Below are positions 3,784 to 62,222 of a stretch of DNA of 64,000 nt, one piece after another (position 1 is the stretch's first letter; every line of letters begins with the position of its first letter). The translations under genes and the position numbers were made by a program. The notes under the pieces were generated by a model, which made no database searches, had not been told where the DNA came from, and saw only the letters and a program-made list of their open reading frames with translations. The DNA is from Candidatus Poribacteria bacterium (GTDB lineage: Bacteria > Poribacteria > WGA-4E > WGA-3G), in the NCBI GenBank assembly GCA_003635315.1, contig PYJD01000031.1, positions 157,958 to 221,957 of the forward strand, in the 5' to 3' direction.

Positions 3784-3913
3784 TTGAAAATAATAACACA
3801 AAATCCCTGTAGGAGCGATTTCCGAATCGCGATTTAACTCACTGATAGTCGGGAATCGGAGTTCGCTCCTACATCTCAAAATGTTCCATTAATTCAAAAG
3901 CTTACTATAAAAG
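3784..3913. repeat. ~130-bp hairpin repeat (copy A). Acts as a rho-independent terminator on the minus strand for the transporter gene 3999..6275.
   Basis: Long imperfect hairpin GTAGGAGCGAttTCCGA...TCGGagTTCGCTCCTAC. On the minus strand it is followed by GGGAUUUUGUGUUAUUAUUUU. About 93% identical to copy B at 6358..6488. Confidence 0.7.
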
Positions 3914-6357: not shown

Positions 6358-6488
6358 CTTGAAAATAATAACACAAAATCCCTGTAGGAGCGATCTCCGA
6401 ATCGCGACTTAACTCAGTGATAGTCGGGAATCGGAGTTCCCTCCTACATCTAAAAATGTTCCATCAATTCAAGAGTTTACTATAAACA
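6358..6488. repeat. ~130-bp hairpin repeat (copy B). Acts as a terminator on the minus strand for gene 6532..7266.
   Basis: Near-identical to 3784..3913; sits 47 bp beyond the 3' end of the minus-strand gene 6532..7266. Confidence 0.7.
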
Positions 6489-6531: not shown

Positions 6532-7266
6532 TTAGAGTTTAAATCGAAAGATAGTCAGATACTTATGATGTAATTTCTCTGTTAAAGGTTCGCTATTGTA
6601 ACTAATTGAGCCACTTAATCGCAACCCTAATCGAGTCGTTAAGTTAAACGTGAGTGCCGGTTCTGCTAAATACTGAAAGTTCTGAAAACCAACTTGTGGT
6701 GTGAATTTCATGGATATATTCAATTTTCTCCAACCAATTGATGAAAATGCTAACCACCTGAAGGATGTAGGATCAAATTTTCTGACAGTTAGGTCTTTAT
6801 AGGGTTGGATATTTTCAAGAAAATAACCTAATCCTCCAGATATACGCAACACCCCTTTTTCATAAATACCCGGACGAATATATCCACCAATCTGTACTGT
6901 CAGCGCAGTTCCTTGGGTTATATTGCGTTCTAAATCCGTGAATACTTCAACCCCGTATGTACGTATACGCATCCCACCTTGGATACGTCCTTTCGCAATT
7001 TCTGTAATTACACCTTCTTTACCTGAACCACGAGAACCAAATACACCCGCCCATCCATTGATTGTCTTAAAGGGTACTACTGCTGTTAGCGTGATGGTCT
7101 GTAAAGCATCATCACCTGCAATTCCTAAATCTAATGTCTTAGCATCATGTGGCAAATCTGCAAACTGGCTATACGCTGGAATTTCAATGATAATTAAGAA
7201 TATTGACAGAAGTATGATTCTAATTATAATCTTATTCATATCATATAAATGACATCCAACTATCAT
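6532..7266 (-). CDS. Secreted/outer-membrane protein, paralog 1 (possibly a MipA/OmpV-like beta-barrel)
   Basis: Signal peptide (IILLSIFLIIIEIPAYS/QF), alternating beta-strand pattern, 244 aa. About 45% identical to the neighbouring 7596..8348 product. Confidence 0.4.
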   Translation of the reverse strand: MIVGCHLYDMNKIIIRIILLSIFLIIIEIPAYSQFADLPHDAKTLDLGIAGDDALQTITLTAVVPFKTINGWAGVFGSRGSGKEGVITEIAKGRIQGGMRIRTYGVEVFTDLERNITQGTALTVQIGGYIRPGIYEKGVLRISGGLGYFLENIQPYKDLTVRKFDPTSFRWLAFSSIGWRKLNISMKFTPQVGFQNFQYLAEPALTFNLTTRLGLRLSGSISYNSEPLTEKLHHKYLTIFRFKL

Positions 7267-10654: not shown

Positions 10655-12028
10655 TTGCCAAATCAACCTAACATTTTATGGATATATGGAGAAGACTTAT
10701 CACCTGATTTAGGATGTTATAATACACCTGCTGTAAACACACCAAACATTGATAGGATTGCTGATGAAGGCACACGTTTCCCTAACGCCTTTGTAACATG
10801 CCCTGTTTGTTCCCCAAGTAGATCGGCATTAATTACTGGAACCTACCAAACCCATTTTGACGCACATAATCATCGGAGTAATCGAGATAAACCTTTGCGC
10901 GAAGATATGAAATTGATCACGGATTGTTTCCGTGAAGCAGGTTACTTCACATGCAATAGTCCGGGTCCACCATACAATCGTAAAGGAAAAACTGATTTCA
11001 ATTTCCATAGAGATGATCCATTCGACGGAATTGATTGGCGTGAACGTCCTGATGATCAACCCTTTTATGCTCAAATTAACATTCCTGATACACATAGAGT
11101 CTTTAAACCTGATCCTGATCGACCAATAAACCCAGAGGATGTAGAATTACCTCCATATTATCCTGATCATCCACTCATCCGTAAGGATTGGGCACTCTAT
11201 CTTGAAAGTATCCAGATCTTAGATAAGAAGATAGGACGAATCCTCAACCGTTTAGACGAAGAGGGCTTAACTGAAAATACAATACTCTTCTTTATGAGTG
11301 ACCATGGACGCGCCCACATACGTTGTAAGCAATTTCTCTATGATGGTGGTATCCATATTCCATTGATTGTAAGATTTCCCGGACAGGTTCAGGCTGGAGA
11401 AGTTAATGAAAATTTGGTGAGTGGTGTGGACTTCATGCCTACTTCACTTTCTATGGCTGGAATTGATATACCGGATTATGTGCAAGGAGAAGTATTCCTC
11501 GGTGAAAAGGCGACTGAACGTGAAGCAATCTTTGCGGCACGAGACAGATGCGATGGCACCGATGACAGGATAAGATGTGTTCGGACAGACAATTATAAAC
11601 TCATACGAAATTATCATCCTGAACTACCCTATATGCAGTTCAATGGATACAAGAAACTTCAATATCCACTTTGGACATTAATCAATATTCTGAATGAAAA
11701 GGGTGAACTTACACCAGCACAGCAACATTTCTGTCAAGATTCCCGTCCCTATGAAGAGTTATACGATCTACAATCTGATCCTTATGAAACAAAAAATCTA
11801 ATTGATGATGAAAAGTATGCAACAGTTAGAAAGGATCTGATAGGAAAATTGGATACTTGGATTGAATCTACTGGAGATATGGGAGTCACACCTGAATCTG
11901 ATGAAGTTAAAACTTATTGGGATAACCACATGTTGCAAGGTTATAATGACAGAATGGAGGATCGCGGTCTATCACCAGATATCAGTGATACGGACTATGT
12001 GAAATGGTGGGAAAACAAACTCCTGTAG
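10655..12028 (+). CDS. Cys-type sulfatase (arylsulfatase family), no signal peptide
   Basis: Sulfatase signature CPVCSPSRSALITG (C-x-P-x-R); metal-binding region FMSDHG. Start ambiguous: TTG at 10634 or, after an AAGGAG ribosome-binding site, TTG at 10655. Confidence 0.8.
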   Translation: MPNQPNILWIYGEDLSPDLGCYNTPAVNTPNIDRIADEGTRFPNAFVTCPVCSPSRSALITGTYQTHFDAHNHRSNRDKPLREDMKLITDCFREAGYFTCNSPGPPYNRKGKTDFNFHRDDPFDGIDWRERPDDQPFYAQINIPDTHRVFKPDPDRPINPEDVELPPYYPDHPLIRKDWALYLESIQILDKKIGRILNRLDEEGLTENTILFFMSDHGRAHIRCKQFLYDGGIHIPLIVRFPGQVQAGEVNENLVSGVDFMPTSLSMAGIDIPDYVQGEVFLGEKATEREAIFAARDRCDGTDDRIRCVRTDNYKLIRNYHPELPYMQFNGYKKLQYPLWTLINILNEKGELTPAQQHFCQDSRPYEELYDLQSDPYETKNLIDDEKYATVRKDLIGKLDTWIESTGDMGVTPESDEVKTYWDNHMLQGYNDRMEDRGLSPDISDTDYVKWWENKLL

Positions 12029-12034
12029 GATGAT

Positions 12035-12420
12035 ATACCACTACCCTCTTGTAGGTCGGGTTGAGGAACGAAACCCATAGGTGTCAACTTAAGAAAATCA
12101 TTCCATTTTATGAGTGTCTTCAGTCCCATAGGGACGATATGTTTATAGAAAAAATGTCAATACAACATTTTGAGTTCCGTAGGAACGGAATGTATATACC
12201 ACAACCCAATTATAAACATTTCGTTCCTACGGAACTCAAGAAAGTTCAGGATAACGGCTTGCTATAAACATATCGTCCCTACAGGACTAAAGAGGATGAC
12301 ATCAACGTCTGTCTATAAACACTCCGTCCTTACCAAATCAACACCAAATGCGCATTTGGCATTTATCGGGACTGAGGCGGCTTTCTGTATTAGAAAATCC
12401 TTAAGTTGACACCTATAGTG
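12035..12420. mobile_element. MITE-like element of family B. It has a leader-like segment, 19-bp perfect terminal inverted repeats (ATAGGTGTCAACTTAAG) and internal GTCCCnnnGGGAC-GGAATGTTTATAG hairpin units in both orientations.
   Basis: CATAGGTGTCAACTTAAG at 12067 and CTTAAGTTGACACCTATAG at 12402 are reverse complements. The interior carries five hairpin units, and the track ORFs inside are spurious. Confidence 0.65.
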
Positions 12421-13624: not shown

Positions 13625-13662
13625 TCCCTCTTGTAGGTCGGGTAGAGGAACGAAACCCACCG
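13625..13662. repeat. Solo copy of the family-B leader segment (CCTCTTGTAGGTCGGGTaGAGGAACGAAACCC)
   Basis: Matches 12035..12066 and, reverse-complemented, 58640..58680. A further fragment lies at ~18458..18488. Confidence 0.6.
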
Positions 13663-13983
13663 AATTCCATACGCGGATTCGACGTTGATTTGGTATAAGA
13701 ACTATGACTTTTTTCATAGTTACTATAAAATCTGTAATCAAGCAATTTCTCGAAAACACTTACTATGACAGGCTTTACAGATAAATTATAGACAACTTGT
13801 TTCATAGTTACTATGAAAATTCATAATAATCAAGTATGTTTTTACATATGGGTTAAACCAATACACTATACACGCAAAAAGTTAAAATCAAACTCTTACA
13901 AACCCGTATTAGATATATCCCTTGCATCATTATCCCATCCTATCTATAATAATAGTATCTCAAAGGGAATTCCCAAATAAGAA

Positions 13984-18105: not shown

Positions 18106-18187
18106 AAAAACACCAGATTTCCAATGGTGAGATGTTTTTCAATCACGACGAATCCGTCCCAATCCCTCTTCTCCGCGGAATCCGCGT

Positions 18188-18291
18188 AATACCATTTCCA
18201 ATTAAAAAACTCTCTTTTTGTAGCACAAACTTTCAGTTTTTGTCTTCCCTGTTTCATTCCTAACAGTCGGTAATGAGATAATCATAAATAG
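18188..18291 (+). mobile_element. MITE-A copy (terminal inverted repeat ATACCATTTCTAATT / TAGAAATGGTAT; core hairpin CACAAACT-ttc-AGTTTGTG)
   Basis: Nested inverted repeats; partial copies follow at 18296..18350 and 18430..18460. The track ORF 18009..18257 (peptide GRQKLKVCATK) is an artefact of this repeat. Confidence 0.65.
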
Positions 18292-18549
18292 AAATAGGTA
18301 TTCCTAATACCATTTCTACATGAATATGTCACTTCTTGTAGCATAAACTACCAGACCAAATGCTGATTACATATTTTTTTAATAAAATTGAAAATTAAAT
18401 GAAGAAAATAACTATATCTAACAACTAACATTACCAAAAGCTACTTTTTTAGCATAAACTTCGAGAAGGTAGGGAAGGAACGAACCCACCATCCACAGTT
18501 CCACCTTTCCAATCTTCCAATTCCGTACTTTTATGGGAAGTATATAATT

Positions 18550-18968
18550 AGAGAATAAATGATGAAAATCTATAAAAACGATCCTAAATACCAATACCCT
18601 CTTTATGTCAAAAAAACAGCTTTAATATGCAGTTTGAAAAACACAAAATCAGCAAGGAAAGAAAAACACAAAATCACACTTTTTGGAAATTCTTATAAAG
18701 TCAATTCAAAATGGAGTGAACTCAGTCTATGACAGAGGTTAGAGGGGTAATTTACACTAATTTCAATCCTACAAAATGTAGGAAAAAGTGTAACTTTTTT
18801 CACTTTTTACACACTTTTTCACCACAGGGAAAAATCAACATTTTCACGATTTATTATATGGGAATTTAGGATTAAAGGTCTGTTTTTGACCCCTATTCGT
18901 TCGTCTGGATATTAGGATTAAATGTTCAATTTACGAATATGAGTTTTAATACAATTTCTAAATGAAAA
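18550..18968 (+). repeat. ~420-bp non-coding element, copy 1. About 80-85% identical to the reverse complement of 59455..59883.
   Basis: Colinear match across the whole length (AGAGAATAAATGATGAaAAtCTATAAAAACGATCCTAAATACCA ... GGGAATTTAGGATTAAAGGTCTGTTTTTG ... TATTAGGATTAAA). Contains hairpin + AAAAGTGTAACTTTTTTCAC motif. Confidence 0.7.
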
Positions 18969-19015
18969 TGTCTCTCTTTGTAGCATAAACTGATAGTTTG
19001 TGCCACATTACGCTT
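18935..19015 (+). mobile_element. MITE-A variant copy (core CATAAACT-gat-AGTTTGTG)
   Basis: Same architecture as other MITE-A copies, with compensatory substitutions in the stem. Confidence 0.5.
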
Positions 19016-19252: not shown

Positions 19253-22210
19253 TTGAAAGTCTTAAAACTTATTCTATTTTTCTCATTTATCTTTTCTGTT
19301 CCAGTTTCAATAGCCTATGAATACCAGTGGATAAATAATGAAGAAATCGAAGGGGCAGACAGCGTTACAGAGGTTAAGCCTCTCCAAGTCATTTTTCTTG
19401 ATGAACCCATTGAGGTGGTAACACACAGTGCCTCTTTGCGTTTGATGCAAAAGTATTCTGTATACCTTGGCACAGAATGGAGTCCGGGGAACGCATATCG
19501 ACTGCTTAAAACTTTCGAATCCATACCCCAACTGACAAACAATCCTTATCATGTTGAACCCACAGTACCTTATTCCTTATGGAAACTGACCCGAAAACAC
19601 ATTCAGGGTGACATCGAAATAGATGTTAGAAATAGACAGACTATTGTTACTGTTTCAGAGGGTGCGTTTACCTATACTGAACCGAGATTGGCAGAGATTG
19701 AAGGTGTGGAAGGACGCTACTTTTCGAAACGACTACATCACGCAGTTGTTCGGTTCGTAACAGATGACGGTAGAGACAGACAAGCAATTGAGTACATATT
19801 GAACAAACGTTATGGGATCAGTTTAAATGTACCCGACTACACAGAATTGACGCGACACACAACAGGTGAGCACGCTGCGCGTTTCACAACCTTTAAAGAC
19901 GAAGAGGTGTTGGATCTCGTCAATATGATTGAGGAATTCCCAACTGGCATGCATAAAATTACGGGACTGAATTACATCATTCGACGTTTAGATGGAACAC
20001 CCCACCCACTTTATCCCACTGCTCCCGCAGTCGCATGGACACAGAGCGGTTACATTGAGTTCATGGAATCCGCATTTCTGGAACAAGGAGCAGACTATAT
20101 CCACCGTTTAATCCTTCATGAAAAGGCACACTTTTTGTGGGAATACCTATTTGATGATCAACTCAAACAGGATTGGATTGAGCTTGGAGGTTGGTATGAA
20201 AATCCAGACGATGTGGATGGGTGGTCTACGACAAAACAGCTTGAGTTTGTTTCCGCGTATGCACACGGCAAGAATCCTAATGAGGATATGGCAGAGAGTA
20301 TCAGTCATTACATCGTTCGACCTGACATACTCCGGTCACGCGCACCAGACAAATATCAATTCATCCAAGATCGGATTATGCACGGCACACGTTATATATC
20401 ACGCATACGCGAAGATCTAACCTTCCAGGTCTACAACCTTTATCCTGATGTCGTGTATCCAGGACGAATTATACGGGTGAATATAGATGTTAGTGGTGAA
20501 CCGGAAGCAGATAAACGTATAGTGATTGAAATAGAACTACACCAGACAGGAGATTTAGACACAGCACAAGCATCAAGTGTCAGAATATTTAGTGACAAAG
20601 GCACATACTTTGACATCTGGCTGTATCCAATAAAAAACGGTATATATACGGATACAGGACATATTCTGCGAGGTGAGGTAGTTTTATCGCGCTATGCTGC
20701 ACACGGATATTGGGGTCCAGATGCGATTACTCTCAAAGATGCTCAAGGAAATGAACGACACCAATCACAAACCGATTTTGGATGGAAACTCTATATCAAC
20801 AGTCCGTTAGCTGACACGGAGGCACCGATTTATGTAAAAAACTCTATGCGTCTTTCCTTGTCAGATGATATGGAAAATGGAAGGCCACTGCAAATATTGA
20901 CGGCTCAGTGGAAGATCATTGAGCAAAATGATATTGAATCCATTTCAGCACGAGCAAACGACGAAAGTGATGAGACTTATTCACGACATTCGTTTAACTT
21001 TGGAACATACGATAAACAGACCGGTTTAGCGACTGTTAAGCTTATTATCCCTGATTACTTCCAAACCGGGATATATTCACTGAACCATATAAGTATGAAA
21101 GATATCGCATTAAACACACGCGGCGTCTACTTTACTAAACCGCATTCCAGCATAAGGGACGAAGAAGAAATCCTTGATGAGAAACCTGCCACCATCCATA
21201 TTAAAACAACAAACCCTGATAGCAATCCCCCTATTCTTGATTTGAACTGGATTACTGTAACAGCAGAACCGACAAATCCTGATGAACCAAACGGGGAAAC
21301 ACGAGTTGATATTACCTTCAGAATTAAGGATGACATCAGTGGATATAGTAAGACATATATTGATTTACGTGATCCACATGGCGTGGTTCACACCTTTTCA
21401 CATCTTCATAGCGATTATTACAAAACCTATTTCACAGAGGATCCATTTGACTTTAAAATCTACAACAAAACGATTATTCTTCCTGTTGGTAGCGTCCCGG
21501 GTACATGGGGTATTTCTCAGATGACAGTTCAAGATAAGGCACAAAACATCCTACGCGCCGACTTCACAGAAATTGTCCGTTTTGTTGTGAATGATATGTC
21601 TGTCATATCTCAATACGACGTCAATGGTGATGGAAAGATAGACATACTGGATTTAATAATGGTAGCAAATGCATTTGGAACGACTGAGAATGATAGTGCG
21701 GATGTCAACGGTGATGGTGCTGTCAATATACAAGATTTAGTAGGAGTTGCCAGTCATATCGGTGAAGGATCTTTAGAGGCACCGACTACACACAATCTAA
21801 CTGCCAACCAAATACAAAGTTGGATCACACAAGCAACACAAGTCGATGACGGTAGTCCTGCTTTCCAGTCAGGTATTCGTGTGTTACAAGACCTCTTACT
21901 CGAACTGCAACCAGAAAAGACTGAACTGTTGCCAAATTATCCTAACCCGTTTAACCCGGAGACATGGATTCCCTATAAATTGGCAAATCCAAGTGATATA
22001 ATAATAAATATCTATGATTCGAGTGGCAGCCTTGTGCGTCAACTTGACTTGGGTCATCAGTCAACCGGTATATACCAGATTCGTAGTCGTGCTGCATATT
22101 GGGATGGTCGGAATAAGCTTGGGGAACGGGTGGCGAATGGAATCTATTTTTATCAACTGCAGACGGATAGTGTTTCACCACCACTTAGGAAAATGGTTAT
22201 TCTGAAATAA
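19253..22210 (+). CDS. Secreted multidomain zinc metalloprotease (HExxH) with dockerin-type repeats and a T9SS (Por) C-terminal sorting domain
   Basis: Signal peptide; HEKAHFLWEY (HExxH); dockerin repeats DVNGDGKIDILDLIMV and DVNGDGAVNIQDLVGV; C-terminus LLPNYPNPFNPETWIPYKL...NGIYFYQL...KMVILK typical of a T9SS sorting domain. Confidence 0.75.
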   Translation: MKVLKLILFFSFIFSVPVSIAYEYQWINNEEIEGADSVTEVKPLQVIFLDEPIEVVTHSASLRLMQKYSVYLGTEWSPGNAYRLLKTFESIPQLTNNPYHVEPTVPYSLWKLTRKHIQGDIEIDVRNRQTIVTVSEGAFTYTEPRLAEIEGVEGRYFSKRLHHAVVRFVTDDGRDRQAIEYILNKRYGISLNVPDYTELTRHTTGEHAARFTTFKDEEVLDLVNMIEEFPTGMHKITGLNYIIRRLDGTPHPLYPTAPAVAWTQSGYIEFMESAFLEQGADYIHRLILHEKAHFLWEYLFDDQLKQDWIELGGWYENPDDVDGWSTTKQLEFVSAYAHGKNPNEDMAESISHYIVRPDILRSRAPDKYQFIQDRIMHGTRYISRIREDLTFQVYNLYPDVVYPGRIIRVNIDVSGEPEADKRIVIEIELHQTGDLDTAQASSVRIFSDKGTYFDIWLYPIKNGIYTDTGHILRGEVVLSRYAAHGYWGPDAITLKDAQGNERHQSQTDFGWKLYINSPLADTEAPIYVKNSMRLSLSDDMENGRPLQILTAQWKIIEQNDIESISARANDESDETYSRHSFNFGTYDKQTGLATVKLIIPDYFQTGIYSLNHISMKDIALNTRGVYFTKPHSSIRDEEEILDEKPATIHIKTTNPDSNPPILDLNWITVTAEPTNPDEPNGETRVDITFRIKDDISGYSKTYIDLRDPHGVVHTFSHLHSDYYKTYFTEDPFDFKIYNKTIILPVGSVPGTWGISQMTVQDKAQNILRADFTEIVRFVVNDMSVISQYDVNGDGKIDILDLIMVANAFGTTENDSADVNGDGAVNIQDLVGVASHIGEGSLEAPTTHNLTANQIQSWITQATQVDDGSPAFQSGIRVLQDLLLELQPEKTELLPNYPNPFNPETWIPYKLANPSDIIINIYDSSGSLVRQLDLGHQSTGIYQIRSRAAYWDGRNKLGERVANGIYFYQLQTDSVSPPLRKMVILK

Positions 22211-22772: not shown

Positions 22773-22841
22773 CCGGGAACATCTATCTTCATAATAAGCA
22801 CACGTAGGGTTCCAACCTATAAGAACCCCAAAATAAAACAA

Positions 22842-22955
22842 TACCATTTCTAATTTATAAACTCTCTTTTTTGTAGCACAAACTTTCAGTTTGTGTCTTC
22901 CTTGTTTCATTTCTAACAGCCAGTAATGAGAGAAATAATAAATTTGAAATGGTAT
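22842..22955 (+). mobile_element. MITE-A copy (reference copy)
   Basis: ATACCATTTCTAATT...CTCTCTTTTTTGTAGCACAAACTTTCAGTTTGTGTCTTCC...AATGAGAG...TTTGAAATGGTAT; a degenerate second copy lies at ~23040..23110 (core CATAATCTG-tca-GATTGTG). Confidence 0.7.
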
Positions 22956-23287
22956 AATCAACCTTTCAACATACCTTACGATCCCTAAAATTCACACATA
23001 AAGTGCAGTTTCCCGATCACACGGATTTTATATATAACCTTAGTTGCCACCTATGTAGCATAATCTGTCAGATTGTGCCTAAGGTAATGTGACAAAATCA
23101 ATAGAAATGGCATCATTATATGAGTACACTAATCCTGTCTAATTAAAATATCGTCACAGATCGTATAAACTGCTAAAATAGTTTATACTATTAGGCTATC
23201 ATCTTGTATAGATAGACATTATTTAAAATGACCTATGGTTTTATTATATATTTTATATGTGGCAACTTATAATAGAAGAGGTGGAGA

Positions 23288-24427: not shown

Positions 24428-24629
24428 CATCTTTAGAATCTACATGTTTATCCTACCGTGTACCACATTTTCACTTGAATTATCAGACCAATATGGACAA
24501 TGGTAGAACATAATGATAATTTTACCATACCGATATCAATTATACCATAGGGTTATTTAGTTTTCTAAATTTCCACTACTTTTTATTTATTCCGTAATTG
24601 TATATATTGTTATCTTATATAGGTCTTTA

Positions 24630-24980
24630 GTCCCATCGGGACGGAATGTTTATAGCAAAAGTGTATACACCATAGGGAGTTCCATCAGGACGGAATGTTT
24701 ATAGAAAAAATGCGAACCCCTATCTTGAGTTCCGACATATGCTATATGCTTATTTGACGTTGATTAGGTAGGGACGGAATGTCTATAGAAGAACGTATTC
24801 ACACAGTCTTGAGTCCCATCGGGACGGAATGTTTATAGAAAAATGCGAACCCCTATCTTGAGTTCCGTAGGAACGGAATGTTTATAAAAGAACGTATTCA
24901 CACAGTCTTGAGTCCCATCGGGACGGAATGTCTATAGAAAAATGCGAACCCTATCTTGAGTTCTGTATGAACAGCATAAT
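24630..24980 (+). repeat. Family-B tandem array. It carries about 7 units of a ~26-bp hairpin repeat (GTCCCATCGGGACGGAATGTTTATAG) separated by ~23-bp segments that themselves recur in alternation. CRISPR-like but not CRISPR.
   Basis: Stem variants GTCCC/GGGAC and GTTCC/GGAAC (compensatory). 'Spacers' AAAAATGCGAACCCCTATCTTGA and AAGAACGTATTCACACAGTCTTGA each occur 3 times. Confidence 0.7.
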
Positions 24981-25529
24981 CAAAAAACATATCGTCACGG
25001 GTGGGTATAAACTTTGAGTAAATAACAATAACGGAAGCCCCTTAAAAATATGACATTTTCATCAACTATTCATGAAATCCTACAAATCGTTGTAGGTTCT
25101 TCCTATTGAGGATCTAACAAATCATCATATAAGTCAATAAAGTATCGTAAAATATTGTTCTTGACAAATACAACCAAATATGTTTTAATTTTGATTGATG
25201 AGTTACGATGTGCCACAGTTTAGAGGGTTTTTGCATCATTATTACGTTAATTCCCTCCTAATGCTTAACAAAATTTACCACTTTTCTAAGGAAAAATAAA
25301 AACGGGGAGATTTCATAAATAGATATAGGAACGAGTGGATCACATGGCGTAGAAATAACAATTATGATTGTAATGAGGTTGCCATGGGAGCACATGTTGA
25401 CGATGTTTTGAGATCGTTAGTTAGTTCAAACAAACTTAAAAGATTAGGTAATGGATGGGATAGAGTTGTTAGTACTGAAGCAATAAACATAGAAGTACCA
25501 TCGATATTTTAGAACATGATTTCGTAAAG

Positions 25530-25689: not shown

Positions 25690-26334
25690 AAGGTTGAAAA
25701 TGCAGAGATAACTGAAGCACCCCAACTCAAAGGTGATGTAAACGGCGATGGTATCGTCAACATACAAGATTTGGTGTTAGTCACTTCTAATCTTGGGAAA
25801 TAGGGACAAATGCTGCGGATGTGAACGGTGATGGCATCGTTAATATTCAGGATCTCGTCCTTGTTGCTGGTGCATTAGGTACAAGTGCAGCCTCACCATC
25901 TATACTTTCCCAATCATTAGAGACACTACAACTGCAGATGTCAAATTGTGGTTATCTCAAGCACAACAACTAAATCTCACGGATACTACCTCCCAGCGCA
26001 GTAGCCTGTTCTTAGAACAACTCCCTGAGACGTTAACACCGAAAGAGACAGCACTGCTACCAAACTATCCAAATCCGTTCAACCCAGAGACGTGGATACC
26101 GTATCAGTTAGCGAAGGATGCGAATGTTGCACTGCATATCTATGCTGTAAACGGCACATTGGTGAGAACATTAGCACTCGGATATCAGGCTGCGGTCGGT
26201 ATCAGAACCGTAGTCGTGCCGCGTATTGGGATGGTAAGAATGAATTCGGTGAACGCGTGGCGAGTGCAGTGTATTTCTATACACATACAGCAGGTAATTT
26301 CACTGCTACGCGTAAGATGTTGATACGGAAGTAA
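25690..26334 (+). pseudogene. Frameshifted remnant of a dockerin + T9SS C-terminal domain, copied from the 3' end of the 19253..22210 gene
   Basis: Frames contain GDVNGDGIVNIQDLVLV, ADVNGDGIVNIQDLVLVAG, then LLPNYPNPFNPETWIPYQL...HIYAVNGTLVRTLALGYQ, and in another frame RSRAAYWDGKNEFGERVASAVYFY...RKMLIRK. Confidence 0.7.
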
Positions 26335-26443
26335 ACCTTATCAACGAAACACGGAAGAGTGTAAGCTAACACCCTTCTATTAACAACCTGACTGCACAAC
26401 TACACATTGCATTCATAAATCAATAAAGGAGTTTATGTTGAAA

Positions 26444-27076
26444 ACTTTAGTTGTAAATGTAAATAATTTTGTATCAAGACCACTAATTTTGAGTTTTATT
26501 ATAGTCGTTTTAGTTATGTTCTCTAAAGCTTCTGTTTCGGTAGCTGAATTTGAGGTAGGAACACAATTCGGATTTACCCGACTTGTTCCCACAGATGAAA
26601 CTTAATCTTCAGTATCGGTTCTACAGGTACCCTCAGGAGAAATATCTGGTGTTGGTGCCTCGCCTTACCTAACTTTCTTTCCTCATAAGCAGCTTGCTGT
26701 TAGTCCTGCATTCGATTTTACACGGCTAACGACAACAACGTCTTTTACACTTTGGGGAGAAAGTGAAAAAGTAACCGTGAGTGCAAGCCAACTCTACTTA
26801 GGAAGTAAATTTCATTATTTTTTTATCGGTCATCAAGTGTCTAATCCTTATTTATTTGGAAAAGTGTCCATAACCGCTCCATTTAGTGAAAACAGTGACA
26901 GTGAAGTATTATTTCATACTGGGATTGGTCTTGGTTACCAATTGCCCATTGTCCCTGCTTATTTTCTTCGGTTGGAAGGACAGTACAACCGTTTGATAAA
27001 TGAAGACGAAAACGCTAACGGTTTTTCAGTAATGATGGGTATTGGTGTGCGGTTTGGAAACAACGAAGAAAGATAG
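26444..27076 (+). pseudogene. Probable disrupted outer-membrane beta-barrel gene (signal peptide in one frame, rest of protein in another)
   Basis: MLKTLVVNV...VLVMFSKASVSVAEFEVGTQFGFTRLVPTDET* stops at 26604. Beta-barrel-like sequence continues in a different frame to 27076 (…GIGLGYQLPIVPAYFLRLEGQYNR…GIGVRFGNNEER). Confidence 0.4.
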
Positions 27077-27344
27077 CACACTGAGAGAACACGTGGTAAC
27101 GATTTTACCACTACAGCAAAATGTTGATATAATGTAGTAGGTTGGGTCGGTTCTCCTTAACGCTCAATCCAACCTACGAAATCCACTATACCTCACCTAC
27201 AACGGAAATACGCAAAATGAATCAATACGCAAAATCTAATATAATAGCGTTATTTACAATACCTTTGTAAAATTAGGTAGCAACATAGGTTAGTATAAAT
27301 CAATATAAGGCACTATATCGGTAAGGTTCTATAATCTGTAAACC

Positions 27345-27385
27345 CAAAAACAGGTAGGTAATATATCAATTACCTACCTGTTTTT
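27345..27385. terminator. Bidirectional rho-independent terminator
   Basis: AAAAACAGGTAGGTAAT-atatca-ATTACCTACCTGTTTTT (perfect 15-bp stem flanked by A/T runs). Confidence 0.8.
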
Positions 27386-27639
27386 ATATAAAAGTTATTC
27401 AAACACATTAACAAGCCGTGTCCGGACAATCAAGTTTTCATATTTTTGCCAATATTGATAACACCAATCCGTCCATCTTAAGGTAATCCTTACAGAGAAA
27501 CATAAACATACACCCAGATAGCCAGAAACGATCTTATACATTTTTTTATCATTGTTATGTCATTGAAGATTAACTATTGGTTGGGTATAGTATGTATTTT
27601 GATTTACGCATCAATTAATACCATTACAGATATAAAATA

Positions 27640-27720
27640 TCTCTCCCTTGTAACCTAAACTGCCAGTTTGTGGCACAATCCGCTTTCTCTCTAACAACAG
27701 GTAATCGAAAAAATATAATA
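27640..27720 (+). mobile_element. MITE-A variant copy (core CCTAAACT-gcc-AGTTTGTG)
   Basis: Same spacing and flanks as other copies, with stem covariation. Confidence 0.5.
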
Positions 27721-27766
27721 AAAATTGAAGAAATATTAAAGAACAAACATCACATTTATAAATTAG

Positions 27767-27797
27767 TTGACAGAATAGTAAACATACGTTACAATAC
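27767..27797 (+). promoter_or_regulatory. Sigma-70-like promoter (TTGACA-17-TACAAT)
   Basis: TTGACAgaatagtaaacatacgtTACAAT; the nearest downstream ORF is 27910..28200. Confidence 0.45.
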
Positions 27798-27909
27798 CAG
27801 ATAGTGAATTATTTTAATACTCAAACTAATGCCAAACCAGTATGAATTAAGTATACATATACACTGTTTTACAAATATGACTTCTATCACACAAATTAAT
27901 GGACATTAA

Positions 27910-28200
27910 ATGTTAAAGAATCCATCAAGAACACTTTTTTATTTTTTTACACAAATTCGTAAATTGGCTATAAACATAGGTGGCTACTTACCTAACAGCG
28001 AATATACAAAAATTGAGGTGACAGAAAAAAGTTACGATTTCGTAACTTTTTCAAACAATAGTAATAAAGAAATTACAAACTTTCCGAAGCGGTCAAAATC
28101 ATCTAAAAATAAGAACAGCAAAACTGGTAAAAGTGTATATTGGATCTTCATCGGAAATGTAAGGAAGATACAAAATCCCACAATTTCCGAATTATTATAA
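27910..28200 (+). CDS. Hypothetical small basic protein (96 aa)
   Basis: ORF downstream of a consensus promoter; no recognisable domain and no ribosome-binding site. Confidence 0.25.
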   Translation: MLKNPSRTLFYFFTQIRKLAINIGGYLPNSEYTKIEVTEKSYDFVTFSNNSNKEITNFPKRSKSSKNKNSKTGKSVYWIFIGNVRKIQNPTISELL

Positions 28201-28477
28201 TTCTAATAAAAACACCGATGAACACAGACTGTGACAGGGCGGACAGCGGTTTTTATAATGACACACAATGTGTCAAAAAGTGTAACATTTTAAACATACT
28301 AATATATAATATATTACTATTGTTAATTAGAAAAATGGTGTAAATTACGGAGAATTACTTGGTTAAATATATAGGTATAGTGAAAAATAAAGATACCTTA
28401 AAAATAAGATTTAGGTGATATATTCCAAACTGATAATATAGGTTTTTGAGATATGTGATAGATAACAAATTACATCT

Positions 28478-28587
28478 AATACCATTTCTAATTGATGAAC
28501 TCTATTTTTTGTAGCACAAACTTTTAGTTTGTGTCTTCCCAGTTTCATTCCTAACTGCCGGTAATGGGACAATAATAAATAGAAATG
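28478..28587 (+). mobile_element. MITE-A copy
   Basis: ATACCATTTCTAATT...TGTAGCACAAACTTTTAGTTTGTGTC...AAATAGAAATGGTAT; track ORF 28411..28617 is spurious. Confidence 0.7.
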
Positions 28588-28876
28588 GTATAACAACAGA
28601 CAATAACTATAATCCAATAATATACTATTAGATAAACCAGAATCCTACTATTTTCACGCTTTCTAAACTTGCAATTATGGATAAAATAAGGTATAATAAT
28701 ACTGAAATTGTACAATAAATTAATAATATTCGAAGATATTTTTGGTTAAAATTCTACTGCTTACTCCTTACCTCAAGAGCAACTACTTCTCAACTTATAC
28801 TTATAGGATTTTAGCTTACTTGAATGATAGAAAGATATTATTAAACGCTCTCTCAGGTAAATGTATTGAGGAATAA

Positions 28877-29890
<1,014 letters not shown>

Positions 29891-53972: not shown

Positions 53973-54039
53973 GTTTAACTATATTACTCCATTTACCTGA
54001 TATTTATATATTGTATAAATCTAAGTTATACATTTTCTA

Positions 54040-54139
54040 TTAATTTGTATCTCATTACCGGTTGTTAGGAATGAAAAGGGAAGGCACAAACTAACAGATT
54101 ATGCTTCTACAATGAGATATTTTCAATTAGAAATGGTAT
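54040..54139 (-). mobile_element. MITE-A copy (reverse orientation) between lptA and lptB
   Basis: Reverse complement gives ATACCATTTCTAATT...TGTAGAAGCATAATCTGTTAGTTTGTGCC...GGTAATGAGAT. Confidence 0.6.
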
Positions 54140-54269
54140 TAGATAAACACATCTGGTTATCAACCTACTTAGAAAACCTTTATCATCTAATACAACTATT
54201 TCTCAATACATATAATTTGTTGTTAAGTAATCCTATATTGGATTAAAAACATTTCGATTTATTAACAGT

Positions 54270-58257: not shown

Positions 58258-58322
58258 TTTAAATGAGGATGTTTCATAATTGTAGAGCCATAGGCGTAAA
58301 TTAGCTCCTTTCCCAAACCTGG

Positions 58323-58680
58323 TAGAGTTGGTTTGGAACCGAATGGAACTCCTTATGGTGTATACACCTTTGCTATAAACATTCCGTCCCTACGAGACTC
58401 CTTATGGTGTTTACACCTTTGCTATAAACATTCCGTCCCTATGGAACTCACTATGGTGTTTACACCTTTGCTATAAACATTCCGTCCCTACGGGACTCAC
58501 TATGGTGTTTACACCTTTGCTATAAACATTCCGTCCCTACGGGACTCCTTATGGTGTATACACTTTTGCTATAAACATATCGTCCCAATGGGACTAAAGA
58601 CATCAATATCAGACAACTATAAACCACTAAGTTGACACTTATGGGGTTTCGTTCCTCAACCCAACCTACAAGAGGTGCTG
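58323..58680 (-). repeat. Family-B tandem array: 6 units of 49 bp (27-bp hairpin repeat + 22-bp palindromic GGTGTATACACC-containing segment) ending in the family-B leader/terminal-inverted-repeat segment
   Basis: Plus strand reads (CTATAAACATTCCGTCCCTACGGGACT + CCTTATGGTGTATACACCTTTG) x~5, then ...CTAAGTTGACACTTATGGGGTTTCGTTCCTCAACCCAACCTACAAGAGG. The 22-bp segments are near-identical, so they are not CRISPR spacers. Confidence 0.7.
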
Positions 58681-59454
58681 CCATATACCTTTCGTCTCTC
58701 CGTGGATTTGACTCATCCAACTTGAGAGATGCAGTATTAATTACTATAACGTTAATTTATATTGGATATCAATCTCCTTTCAGAAGTTTCGATTCATCAA
58801 TTTAGAATTTGTCTAAAAACGGGAAAATGTTACACTTTTTCCTACATTCTGTAGGATTTTTTTTCGGTGAAATTATGGCTTTTAGACCAGTGCTGTACTG
58901 GGTTCAGCACCATCAATTTAGAGGAAAGCACAATTATGTATTTTTTCATTTTTGTGTTATTTTTCTGATTTCTGTTTTTTGTGTAAAATTATCACATATG
59001 TTAATATTTCGTTGATAATTATGAGTTGTTAGTTTATAGTTATCAATTAGCGATTGTTGGTTGTCAGATAAAGGAATATCTGCCCAAGGAATTACTGTAT
59101 ATCTCATGGTCTTTTTTTGAGATATTTCTATATATTTTCTGATCCAGAATGAGCTGAATTTAATTGAGAAAGTTACGATACTGTAACTTTTTTCATGTAT
59201 ATCTTTCATTTTGAAATAGTATAATCCTTGATTTTAGTTTTTCAAGTTTTTCAAGTCGGTTTTTAAAATCTCCCAATTTGGAGTGTCTTTCAGTAATTCT
59301 GGCACTATGCTCTTAAAGGAAATCATTTACAGTGCGAATGAATTGACTTTATATGGTTCGTTATTGTTTATAGATGTTGTACCGATTCTAAGAATGATGT
59401 TGCATAACAAGCTAATTTGGATATCATCTCATACTGTCTAACCTAAAGGTTATG

Positions 59455-59883
59455 CTAAAATAAAGAAACATATTCATTTAGAAATAGTATTAGAACTCAT
59501 AGTCGAAAATTACACTTTTAATCCTAATATACAGACAACGTAATAAGGTGCAAAAACAGACCTTTAATCCTAAATTCCCCATTGAAAAATTGTGAAAATG
59601 TTGAATTTTTCAATTCGCTGAAAAAGTGAAAAAAGTTACACCTTTTGACACATTCTGTGTCATTGAAATTGGTGTAAATAACCCCTCTAAGCTCTTTCAT
59701 AGACTGACTTTACTCCACTTTGAATTAACTTTTTAAGAATTTGTAAAAAGTGTGATTTTGTGTTTTTGTTGTCCATGCTAATTTTGACAATTTCAACATG
59801 GGTATTATAGTTGATTTTTCGACATAAATATAGTTGTGGTATTTAGGATCGTTTTTATAGGTTGTCATCATTTATTCTCTTAT
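59455..59883 (-). repeat. ~420-bp non-coding element, copy 2 (inverted relative to 18550..18968)
   Basis: See copy 1. The adjacent 59400..59455 carries a MITE-A-like core (TAGCATAACCtttaGGTTAGAC). Confidence 0.7.
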
Positions 59884-60204
59884 TATTTCTTTCTTATTAA
59901 GGTTATGATTTTAAGTTTTACATATCTCATAAATCAGATATTTGGTGATGTTTTTATCTTGCTCTTTGCTTTATATGGAAACAACGGGCGGGTTTTTTAT
60001 ATATAATTTGGCCGCCCCAACGAATTTGATCAACTAAAAATAAACAATCGTTAATAAGTATTATACAAATATATTTTGATTTTGACAAGTTAATTTGCTG
60101 AATTTATTTGTCTTATGTCTTTTAGTGGGTTGTGGTTTGGATTTTATTCAATTTTTTTTAATTAGGTATCAGACTTTTAGTTTATTTTCTTAATTGCGGA
60201 TTTT

Positions 60205-60470
60205 ACGGAGAAGAGGGTTGGTGGCAAGTGGGTGGTTTTGTTAAGTGATGGTTTCTTGTCATGTCTGAATCGCGGAATACGCGGATGACATGGAATACAC
60301 GGATAAGAGGGTTGGGATAAGGTGAGTGGTCTTGATAAGTTCTGGTTTCTTGGGATGTCTGAATCTTGGATTTCACGGATTTCTCGGAACTGGGTTTGTC
60401 TGAATCGCAGATTACGCGGATGACACGGTTAAGAGGTTTTTGTTGGCGGAACGATCGAATCAAGGAATCA
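60205..60470. repeat. Non-coding tandem repeat, ~92 bp x ~2.7 (…TGTCTGAATCGCGGAATACGCGGATGACATGG…)
   Basis: Three recurrences of TTTCTTGnnATGTCTGAATC...ACGCGGATGACA(T/C)GG with GGTTGG-rich spacers. Confidence 0.6.
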
Positions 60471-60538
60471 ACAGTATGAATGCCATTTAGACATTCCCTG
60501 CTTTAACGTAAACACCTGTAGTTTCAACCGAAAATAAC

Positions 60539-60942
60539 CTAAAATTGTTCTATTGTATTTGTCCAAGTTAATTCTTGTTGTATACGTTGTTGTCCTGCTC
60601 TGCCAAACTGTTTTCGTTTCTCTGGGTTTTCTAATAGCGTTATAATAGCGGTTGCTAAAGCATCCACGTTTTTCTCACCTACCAAGAGACCTGTTTCGCC
60701 ATCTTTTACGACAATAGGTATACCTGAAATATTTGAGGAAACCACAGGTTTCCACACGCCATCGCTTCTAAAATTACAATTGGACATCCATCCACATTGC
60801 CTTTGGGATCAAAGACTGCGGGGAGCACAAAGAGATCACAAAAATGAAAGTAGGTGGGAACGTTTTCGCGGTTTATCGTGCCGGGGAATCGAAAGATATT
60901 TGCGACGTTATGTTCATCTGCAAGCGTTTTCAGACGCGGCAA
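60539..60942 (-). pseudogene. Truncated, frameshifted GT4 (group 1) glycosyltransferase remnant (C-terminal domain only)
   Basis: Two overlapping frames give ...CDLFVLPAVFDPKGNVDGCPIVILEAMACG / ...VVSSNISGIPIVVKDGETGLLVGEKNVDALATAI... (EAMAxG and GG..E..DG.TG GT4 motifs). The N-terminal domain is absent. Confidence 0.6.
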
Positions 60943-61229
60943 GTCAGTCCCATCTCCACCAATAATGACTGTTACATTCCGAACCTTTTTTGAACATGAG
61001 GCAGTGCATGAATCAGAACGTCATATCCTTTTTTTACACAATCCGTCCTAAAGCGAAAACAACGAGATCATTAAGTTTTCGCTCCGCTGCAGCCACCGTG
61101 CCTCATCACTATTCCAATGTGCGTCTAACGATAATAACCTTGGAATACTAATTATCAATAGGTGCAGCATACAAACACTGGGATAAATTTTCTCATATTG
61201 CGTTTTCAATGTGTAAGGCTTTTTTTAGT

Positions 61230-62222
61230 TTAATCTGGGAAACGCAGGTCTTTTTCATCAATTGGGATGTTAAAGACGGCTTTATGTACCTGCATTGTTG
61301 TTTTTCTGAATCCTTGTTGTGTAACAGGATCGTAACCTAATGATAAGGTTGCAGTTTTCGGAAACCAGAGATCCTGATTAAACTGTTCAATGTGGAATGC
61401 GGTATTAATTCGACTGATGACAATCCTAGGTGGTCGGCGTATACGGGTTCCATCTGAACGTTTTATACTACTTTGTGCTATCTGTTTTGTAGTTCTTAGA
61501 GTGCGTGTCGGACGATAACCTTTCATCGGATCTACCCATAGCTGTTCGGTCATGGAACTCTTCTCGCTATGAACTCGATGTAAAGTAAGTAAATAGAGTG
61601 GAACACCATCGACTTCAACTTGTTCAACCTTAATTGGAGGCGCGAACTTGATTAGGAATGCAAAACTGAACACACCAGGATTCCATCCCCAACTGCGGGG
61701 GGTAAACTCTGATCTAAAGATGAGTTTATCTATTGGTTGTGGATGCTGAACCCAGCCGGTATCCTTTAGTTCTCTAATCAACATTTTTTCATTATGAATC
61801 TGAAATTGGTAGTGTTTCTCTGTCCAGTTTCGAAGAGGCTCTCCGTTGAATTCCATCTTTTTACGTATTCTAACGTCGTAAAATCGTCGCGATCCCTCAA
61901 AATTATAAACGATGTGCCAAGTGCCTACGTTTTCAAACTCTACTTTTTTTACCTTCTGTTTCTGATTCTGTAAAAGTTTACCCAGCGTGACGGTAAACTC
62001 GACTTTACCGCTTTTGAGTTTTTTGTTATAATCCTCAACACCTTTTTTAATTTGTTCTAACAATTGTGCGCTTTCTTTAGATAACTCTACTTCATTCTCA
62101 GGGAAGAGACTGCCTCCAGATTCAGCTTTCTCAGATGCGAAGATGTCATAATGAAACAGGAAAGATAGCGTCAAACTTAATAACAGAAATGGAATCTTGT
62201 TTGATTTGTTGTTTAATAACAT
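61230..62222 (-). CDS. Secreted hypothetical protein (paralog of 62222..63403); possible LolA/LppX-like lipoprotein-carrier fold
   Basis: Signal peptide. Shared motifs with the upstream gene: GTW...F.G, PR.WGWN, GYRP.R, DLWFP. Confidence 0.3.
   Translation of the reverse strand: MLLNNKSNKIPFLLLSLTLSFLFHYDIFASEKAESGGSLFPENEVELSKESAQLLEQIKKGVEDYNKKLKSGKVEFTVTLGKLLQNQKQKVKKVEFENVGTWHIVYNFEGSRRFYDVRIRKKMEFNGEPLRNWTEKHYQFQIHNEKMLIRELKDTGWVQHPQPIDKLIFRSEFTPRSWGWNPGVFSFAFLIKFAPPIKVEQVEVDGVPLYLLTLHRVHSEKSSMTEQLWVDPMKGYRPTRTLRTTKQIAQSSIKRSDGTRIRRPPRIVISRINTAFHIEQFNQDLWFPKTATLSLGYDPVTQQGFRKTTMQVHKAVFNIPIDEKDLRFPD

Follow-up and report, generated by a model that had tools for sequence, protein, structure and literature searches.

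The locus and its setting

The repeats described here lie in a 64-kb stretch (the window) of the chromosome of a Candidatus Poribacteria bacterium. They centre on a locus at about 12.1 kb that fills the 440-nt gap between a sulfatase gene on the plus strand, ending at 12028, and a PD40 beta-propeller gene converging on it from the minus strand. The sulfatase is 92-94% identical to Poribacteria proteins, and an exact-protein look-up returned no identical recorded protein for it. The gene content of the window is of a housekeeping and transport character (GAPDH, TIM, SecG, GatB, ValRS, RpoN, Lpt proteins, ThiO, MatE and a Type ISP methylase), and no tRNA or tmRNA genes were found in it. Related repeats occur at 24.6 and 58.3 kb, each of the three loci lying directly downstream of gene ends. 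[quoted passage not shown] As single-stranded DNA the whole locus is predicted to fold into a nested palindrome (-77.7 kcal/mol, z = -11.4).

A previous sequence-only reading had described 12035-12420 (386 bp) as a MITE bounded by 19-bp perfect terminal repeats, opening with a 32-bp leader-like segment and carrying five hairpin units that resemble CRISPR (clustered regularly interspaced short palindromic repeats). The sequence features it pointed to exist, but their anatomy differs. The perfect repeat is 17 nt long and bounds a piece of only 340 bp (12077-12416) that leaves the leader outside; there are indeed five units, two forward and three reverse rather than the reverse count; and the leader-like sequence is present at 12045-12076 but is a GTAG-tagged REP unit of several phyla.

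A dispersed element of four hairpins

A profile search located 16 hairpin units of the form GTCCCnnnGGGAC + G(G/A)(A/T)ATGT(T/A)TATA in the window, at 12.1, 24.6 and 58.3 kb. The segment 12117-12293 corresponds to exactly one canonical element, with arms that are 89% (outer) and 93% (inner) complementary. The architecture was derived from alignments of 90 elements and their 180 half-elements: an element of about 170 nt (approximately 150-180) is made of two inverted halves of hairpins with the conserved tail GAAATGTTTATAG. Each half runs from an outer hairpin through G(A/G)AATGTTTATAG and a variable spacer of about 22-26 nt to an inner hairpin (mostly GCTCC/GGAGC) followed by AAATGT, and the second half is the mirror image of the first across a variable centre in which no open reading frame (ORF) was found.

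Searching with TCCCNNNGGGACGRWATGTTTATA gave matches in at least 120 metagenome contigs, mostly from soil by name and ranging from 26 to 60% G+C, nearly all of which carry a single element; the reverse tail CTATAAACAT lies 104-151 nt downstream in 95 of 127 matches. Over this range of base composition the 13-nt tail is near-invariant. The only contig that was typed belongs to Acidobacteriota (Blastocatellia/Pyrinomonadaceae) by its NAD synthase, and extra copies in the fetched flanks give a rough density estimate of about one element per 65 kb.

The stems vary in sequence and keep their pairing. In the 90 halves free of constraint from the search pattern, the main outer stem classes are GCTCC/GGAGC (42), GCCGC/GCGGC (24) and GTCCC/GGGAC (7), and outer stems are 94.7% Watson-Crick paired, a figure that falls to 73.3% on shuffling the partners (at most 79.6% over 1000 shuffles). 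The ends of the element are sharp: conservation stops within 1 base of the outer stems, beyond -1/+1 the flanks are random, and they are unrelated at many loci. No direct repeats or target duplications were seen around the element in the flank comparison. Its gene context was convergent in 11 cases, tandem in 19 and divergent in 3, with many copies 1-40 nt past a stop codon.

This four-hairpin family is thus a dispersed one, present in sponge symbionts and soil bacteria, that was not found in Rfam or in the papers searched. With Rfam 15 at gathering score there was no match in the window and only a tRNA in 20 element-bearing loci, and a search of 8 loci at a permissive E-value gave nothing relevant. 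Full-text literature searches with literal strings of the leader, the inverted repeat and the tail returned no relevant paper, the inverted-repeat matches being unrelated primers. Viral contigs contained neither the hairpin unit nor the REP, and a plasmid collection gave two partial, non-significant matches only (E ~0.4 and 2). Clustering of adjacent ORFs in search of a conserved neighbour gene yielded only spurious ORFs reading through the repeat. Assignment to the CGTC-tagged REPs was considered and rejected: these begin their 8-9-bp stems with AT and have 4-5-nt loops, a CGTC tag and a CCA tail (PMC3733652), whereas the present units have 5-6-bp stems, 3-nt loops and the tail GAAATGTTTATAG.

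The leader as a truncated GTAG-tagged REP unit

The 32-mer CCTCTTGTAGGTCGGGTTGAGGAACGAAACCC at 12045-12076 recurs with one mismatch on the plus strand at 13627-13658, where a solo leader had been placed at 13625, and on the minus strand at 58644-58675; a shuffle control gave no match in 100 shuffles. A further solo leader proposed near 18458 is a gapped, degenerate resemblance that gives no match at up to 4 substitutions. The unit consists of TTGTAG + GTCGGGTT-GAGGAACGA-AACCC and ends after AAACCC, the usual 3' GAC(A) being missing. Two window copies stop at this point (12076 and 58644), and in the third, at 13658, a 34-nt insert takes the same position.

The 28-mer TTGTAGGTYGGGTWGAGGAACGAAACCC was found exactly in at least 137 matches at no fewer than 116 genome loci (L001-L116) in a scan that included one genome per species. 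The first 80 loci listed comprise 50 cyanobacterial, 22 from Poribacteria, 3 from Desulfobacterales/Deltaproteobacteria and 3 from Pseudomonas. In context the consensus unit is TTGTAG + GTYGGGTT + a 9-nt loop + AACCCRAC, with an 8-bp stem. Among the matches listed, the stem is completed by AAC/GAC in 125 of 137 exact copies and an inverted partner lies no more than 90 nt away in 61 of the 130 copies that could be assessed. The 'leader' is therefore a GTAG-tagged REP unit and not a CRISPR leader, and the window copies are truncated: GTAG stands beside a palindrome, and the unit is extragenic, present in many copies and arranged in inverted doublets. GTAG-tagged REP families are known in Cyanobacteria, one of them with large loops (PMC3733652).

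Some further observations concern REPs in and beyond the window. The exact 28-nt core is common to Cyanobacteria, Poribacteria, Desulfobacterales and Pseudomonas, which is unexpected given that REP populations are usually called lineage-specific. Another GTAG REPIN, GTAGGAGCGATTTCCGAATCGCGA ... TCGGGAATCGGAGTTCGCTCCTAC, lies at 3808-3874 and 6383-6449 within a 128-nt repeat (94% alike), and its sequence has matches in the Poribacteria loci L022, L018, L051 and L020. The inverted-repeat ends AATACCATTTCTAATT mark an element some 115 nt long that carries a third GTAG hairpin, TTGTAGCACAAACTTTCAGTTTGTG, and is present at 18187-18281, 22840-22956, 28478-28592 and, on the minus strand, 54025-54140; in other Poribacteria the ends AATACCATTTCTAATT stand before doublets of the 'leader' REP.

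An inverted-repeat shell beside REP hairpins

The 340-bp piece is bounded by the 17-nt perfect inverted repeat ATAGGTGTCAACTTAAG/CTTAAGTTGACACCTAT. By our own arithmetic, a perfect pair of this kind is expected by chance about 1e-3 times per 64 kb. The left arm begins directly after the 32-mer, which therefore lies outside the bounded piece. There is no ORF of 80 aa or more inside.

The pool of DNA searched for these ends comprised 1.56 Mb of fetched loci, in which the 17-mer occurs at 25 sites with up to 3 mismatches, including six pairs that bound elements 122-358 bp long. The sequence-only reading had made its mobile-element interpretation depend on further copies with the same ends, and such copies exist: besides the window (340 bp), pairs occur in L037 (Poribacteria, 292 bp), L178 (a metagenome contig, 235 and 358 bp), L023 (Tychonema, 122 bp) and L086 (213 bp), with differing flanks and interiors. 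The interiors hold hairpin units in the Poribacteria-type copies (the window, L037 and L178 twice) and unrelated sequence in the cyanobacterial ones. On its outer side every shell arm adjoins a REP-like hairpin. The junction between leader and GTGTCAACTT, which the sequence-only reading had placed at 58620-58680, does recur on the minus strand at 58626-58675, and a probable, degenerate second shell copy spans 58280-58645. Viral contigs gave 11 single 17-mer matches, about chance level by estimate.

Target-site duplications, which the sequence-only reading had proposed looking for, did not appear in the usual form: no clean, ordinary short one was found, and no transposase either. The window copy has only AT beside each end, which is uninformative as a target duplication because it is palindromic. 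In L037 and L178 the shell is instead flanked by perfect 21-nt direct repeats, GGGTAGAGCGAAGCGAAACCC and GGTGTTGGGTTTCGCTACACC, that correspond exactly to the target REP hairpin (L037 984-1004/1297-1317; L178 2181-2201/2437-2457 and ~5517-5537/5896-5916), one of the three cases carrying one mismatch. In the cyanobacterial copies, L023 and L086, the flanks are inverted. No parent insertion sequence (IS) with shell ends was found in the fetched loci, and the IS beside ThiO in L246 has different ends. The preferred view of the shell is of a small element in its own right, apparently specific for REP hairpins.

Other arrangements of this type were also noticed. A diverged 17-mer (CCTTAGTTGCCACCTAT) directly abuts a GTAGCAYAA-type hairpin at 23038-23077 of the window and at 2108-2140 of L115, so the junction between inverted repeat and REP exists with another REP family as well. 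A second shell, with inverted repeats ACGACTTGTGCTAAATAACT/AGTTAACTAACACAAGTCGT around two direct hairpin units, occurs in L010 (~6845-7075), L012 (~1845-2075) and L035 (~6705-6940), and also at L139, L158, L231 and L244/L245 (~1720-1925); the L010 copy is just upstream of a tRNA-like sequence identified by eye.

Micro-inserts and tandem arrays

A still smaller component, of 33-34 nt, consists of an 8-bp hairpin CCAAATGC/GCATTTGG and a tail CGTTGATTTG. In unit 5 of the 12.1-kb locus it occupies 12334-12366 on the minus strand, with the same hairpin and the tail GTTGATTTG. It always follows CCC immediately on the 3' side, whether within the loop of a unit hairpin or in a REP after AAACCC, and no duplication accompanies it. 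The same loop position is occupied in L035 (~6843-6875), L006 (~6733-6790) and L231, and paralogous elements are seen with the insert in the hairpin unit (L035) and lacking it (L012). The composite of REP and micro-insert found at 13627-13692 is present in L065, L012, L037, L008, L051 and L100 as well, and a degenerate micro-insert on the plus strand at 24735-24767 splits one unit of the 24.6-kb array.

Units of the array at 24619-24990 recur every 49-50 nt, and a higher-order period of 99 nt (93% identity) is superimposed, two types of 'spacer' alternating; the higher-order period indicates that two-unit blocks have been duplicated at 24.7 kb. The array at 58345-58600 has a period of 49 nt, units that are 91% alike and near-identical inter-unit segments. 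These arrays are tandem amplifications of the hairpin unit, probably by recombination or slippage, and not products of spacer acquisition. The suggestion that the arrays derive from one mobile family holds insofar as the three loci share a repeat family, but no inverted-repeat ends were found around the 24.6-kb array; the 58.3-kb array has one clear REP and inverted-repeat end and one probable, degenerate opposite end. Coordinates of these features are collected in Table 1.

Table 1. Repeat features of the 12.1-, 24.6- and 58.3-kb loci in window coordinates. TIR1, 17-nt terminal inverted repeat.
Feature	Position	Strand	Basis
Truncated GTAG-tagged REP unit ('leader')	12045..12076	+	28-mer genome matches, stem analysis
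Left arm of perfect TIR1, ATAGGTGTCAACTTAAG, abutting the REP	12077..12093	+	inverted-repeat search; ends recur elsewhere
Canonical four-hairpin element, 177 nt	12117..12293	.	arm complementarity, nested fold, half-element profile
Arms of the four-hairpin element	outer pair 12117-12151/12259-12293; inner pair 12170-12198/12211-12239		
Unit 1: hairpin GTCCC-ATA-GGGAC + tail GATATGTTTATAG	12123..12148 (hairpin 12123-12135)	+	profile search
Unit 2: hairpin GTTCC-GTA-GGAAC (compensated stem variant) + tail GGAATGTATATAC	12174..12199 (hairpin 12174-12186)	+	profile search
Unit 3: tail + hairpin GTTCC-TAC-GGAAC (as on + strand)	12210..12235 (hairpin 12223-12235)	-	
Unit 4: CTATAAACATATC + GTCCC-TAC-AGGAC (as on + strand)	12262..12287 (hairpin 12275-12287)	-	
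Unit 5: complete, with its loop split by 33-nt micro-insert (12334-12366)	12313..12372	-	sequence reading, insert recurrence
Right arm of TIR1, CTTAAGTTGACACCTAT	12400..12416	-	inverted-repeat search
Second REP unit (13627-13658) + 34-nt micro-insert (13659-13692)	13627..13692	+	
Tandem array, 7 units + 1 degenerate	24619..24990	+	
Tandem array, 5 units	58345..58600	-	
TIR1-like end 58626-58642 (3 mismatches) abutting REP unit 58644-58675	58626..58675	-	
Opposite end (probable, degenerate) of the 58-kb element, TTGTAG-AGCC-ATAGGCGTAAATTAG	58280..58304	+	inferred from sequence reading

Turnover between strains

Variation between strains, suggested earlier as a check on mobility, is evident at the orthologous site. 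Five strains with 92-94% identical sulfatases have five different contents between the sulfatase and PD40 genes: L117, L121 and L122 carry other GTAG REPs or REPINs, L118 a 270-nt element with inverted repeats of about 55 nt, and L120 a REPIN and a single right-hand 17-mer, with the window's AGTG flank kept. The left flank CTACCCTCTTGTAGG is common to the strains, and the sequence after GTAGG differs. Downstream of ThiO, the place of the window's 24.6-kb array is taken in L243, the strain with the closest ThiO protein (94%), by a single four-hairpin element whose stems differ (ACCCC/GGGGT), and in three more distant strains there is no element. These sites are hot spots of repeat turnover.

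Proposed origin of the mosaic

The hairpins bear a conserved unpaired tag, occur as inverted doublets, show no duplication and retain pairing while their stems change, and handling by an enzyme of the HUH/Y1 type is proposed on these grounds. By analogy with GTAG REPs and REPINs, the hairpin-plus-tail units would be non-autonomous, and a HUH/Y1 enzyme acting in trans, resembling IS200 transposases or the REP-associated tyrosine transposases (RAYTs), would recognise them as folded single strands of DNA. The inverted-repeat shell would be a separate small element landing in REP hairpins, and the Poribacteria arrays may have grown by unequal recombination or slippage between units. A secondary role as transcript 3'-end hairpins is plausible given the position of the repeats just after gene ends.

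Several points weigh against this interpretation of the locus. Neither HUH/Y1 nor any other transposase was detected with Pfam among about 50 ORFs of the window, and no Y1 transposase was found beside the elements in 550 kb of metagenome loci, where the query was an IS200 TnpA sequence. The lone Y1 match near a REP copy is an ordinary IS605-type TnpA/TnpB pair in the cyanobacterium L011, whose proximity is probably coincidental. GTAG, the defining tag of RAYT-linked REPs, is missing from the hairpin units: they have no conserved 5' tag, being random from -2 outward, and GTA is only the commonest of their loops. The 21-nt hairpin duplications at two to three shell copies are predicted by neither a Y1 nor the usual DDE mechanism. 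Neither the four-hairpin element nor the window shell yielded a clean comparison of a filled with an empty site, because the whole intergenic region has been replaced in every related strain. The repeat census of the source genome covers the 64-kb window only, and near-identity of the tail across distant taxa could reflect a host function.

Other explanations of the locus must be set beside the nested mosaic. The whole piece might be one classical MITE, a deleted DDE-type IS moved by cut-and-paste through its 17-nt ends with the hairpin units as cargo, and a good deal about the ends suits this: the repeat is perfect, the six pairs with these ends extend over two phyla at sizes typical of MITEs, the Poribacteria-type copies all hold hairpin units, and those in L037 and L178 are flanked by direct repeats. 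Those direct repeats, however, amount to a whole 21-nt hairpin, unlike known DDE duplications, and are lacking at the window copy; the fetched loci yielded no autonomous partner that shares these ends, and the IS beside ThiO in L246 has others. The recurrence of the ends thus bears out part of the MITE packaging originally proposed, but the hairpin units also form an independent element of about 170 nt in metagenomes that lacks the 17-nt shell ends, and they occur apart from these ends in the 24.6-kb array and, within the other shell, in L010, L012 and L035. Because the units exist independently of the shell ends, cargo and shell are separate entities, and a single MITE is an unlikely explanation. 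Alternatively, the hairpin-plus-tail units could be selected by the host, as bidirectional transcript 3'-end hairpins that terminate transcription or stabilise mRNA, or as arrays of sites bound by a conserved DNA- or RNA-binding protein, in either case multiplied by duplication. The three window loci just after gene ends, the avoidance of divergent promoter regions by metagenome copies (3 of 33), a simple scan that calls the two outer hairpins terminator-like, the near-invariant tail and a spacing of about 50 nt, which would put the units on one face of the helix, are all in keeping with such selection. Mobile REPs are reported to show this gene-context bias too (PMC3733652), which leaves it without power to discriminate, and stems of only 5-6 bp, a tail that is not a U-tract and the want of an Rfam match speak against host selection, as do sharp boundaries within unrelated flanks and the absence or replacement of the element at orthologous sites in close strains. 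We regard host selection as the sole origin as rather improbable; host function is nonetheless a live alternative, and may also be an added role as proposed for REPs.

A relationship to CRISPR, with the arrays as degenerate or orphan loci and the 32-mer as their leader, was rejected on the features tested, and we give it next to no credence. The likeness is superficial, consisting of a palindromic repeat of about 29 nt and a period of about 49 nt. The inter-repeat segments of about 20 nt are themselves repeated, a 99-nt period underlies the 24.6-kb array, the units at 12.1 kb stand in both orientations, and the 'leader', being a REP unit, recurs at no fewer than 116 loci across several phyla. 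No cas genes or domains were detected with Pfam in about 50 ORFs across the window, although their absence alone would not exclude an orphan array.

To the mosaic reading a wider proposal can be added, which we offer tentatively and with considerable doubt: the units of hairpin and GAAATGTTTATAG could constitute an undescribed cross-phylum REPIN-like family, present at least in Poribacteria and Acidobacteriota, with a dedicated single-stranded DNA enzyme or a conserved host partner, and nested in Poribacteria with a 33-nt insert that always lands 3' of CCC and a shell that enters REP hairpins and duplicates them. If this is true, duplication of a whole 21-nt hairpin implies a structure-directed insertion mechanism not described for bacterial elements.

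Relation to known repeat systems

The bacterial interspersed mosaic elements (BIMEs) of E. coli are located after genes and consist of clustered palindromic units that alternate in orientation, with other short conserved motifs between them. The present locus resembles BIMEs in each of these respects, but its sequence is unrelated, and the mosaic here includes a true shell of 17-nt inverted repeats as well as arrays in which as many as 7-8 units stand head to tail. Very small dispersed repeats nested inside other repeats were reportedly described in cyanobacteria by Elhai and colleagues in 2008; the 33-34-nt micro-insert is similar in its nesting, which may serve as a lead only. REP-targeting insertion sequences include IS1397 and IS621. 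Another is ISPpu9, of the IS110 family (PMC12288879). The shell and the micro-insert, the latter always 3' of CCC, would share with these a site-specific insertion into REP palindromes; the insertion sequences are autonomous and possess a transposase gene, whereas the pieces seen here are non-coding and sometimes accompanied by a 21-nt whole-hairpin duplication.

GTAG REPs and REPINs with their RAYTs (Di Nocera et al. 2013, PMC3733652; Bertels & Rainey 2011, PMC3116915) are the closest counterpart of the 'leader', sharing a GTAG followed by a short palindrome, extragenic location, many copies and inverted doublets. The four-hairpin element resembles them in its small hairpin, which bears a conserved tag left unpaired, in its inverted doublets and non-coding nature, in showing no target duplication and in a bias toward gene 3' ends, but it differs in lacking GTAG, in its inward-facing 13-nt tail 3' of the hairpin, in having two hairpins per arm and in that no RAYT was found. 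REPIN populations have been described as lineage-specific and vertically inherited (PMC3733652; PMC3116915), unlike the exact cross-phylum conservation of the REP unit and tail reported here. Bacterial MITEs such as Correia/NEMIS, ERIC and Nezha (PMC3733652; census in PMC11602168) are comparable with the 340-bp piece in being small, non-coding, bounded by terminal inverted repeats, present in several copies and able to form a long hairpin; in contrast to them, neither a short target duplication nor a parent IS was found for this piece among the loci searched, and it always lies beside a REP hairpin and contains another repeat family.

Small palindromic repeats fill much of the intergenic space in some bacteria, and few families have a known enzyme or role. 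The four-hairpin family is tractable in this regard, having a searchable signature, a hairpin and 13-nt tail in an inverted doublet, and occurring in both sponge symbionts and soil bacteria. The two unusual insertion behaviours hinted at here, insertion after CCC and duplication of a whole 21-nt hairpin, can be tested in public complete Poribacteria genomes. On a practical level, the arrays can be mistaken for CRISPR, the repeats probably break metagenome assemblies, and the three repeat loci differ between close strains and are possible strain markers.

Other repeats in the window

Further repeats were observed in the window. A non-coding repeat of about 450 nt is present as two inverted copies 40 kb apart (18527-18975 and 59464-59903, 77-87% complementary), both within long stretches in which ORFs of at least 80 aa are few. 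Two regions, 26330-28880 and 59210-61230, are unusually long, repeat-rich and similarly poor in ORFs of this size, and 60198-60385 is a 94-nt tandem duplication (73-79% alike) with repeated CGCGGAATACGCGGATGACA motifs. At about 25.7-26.3 kb, dockerin-like repeats and a segment like a C-terminal sorting domain resemble the gene at 19253-22210, a likeness that suggests a broken paralogue of that gene.

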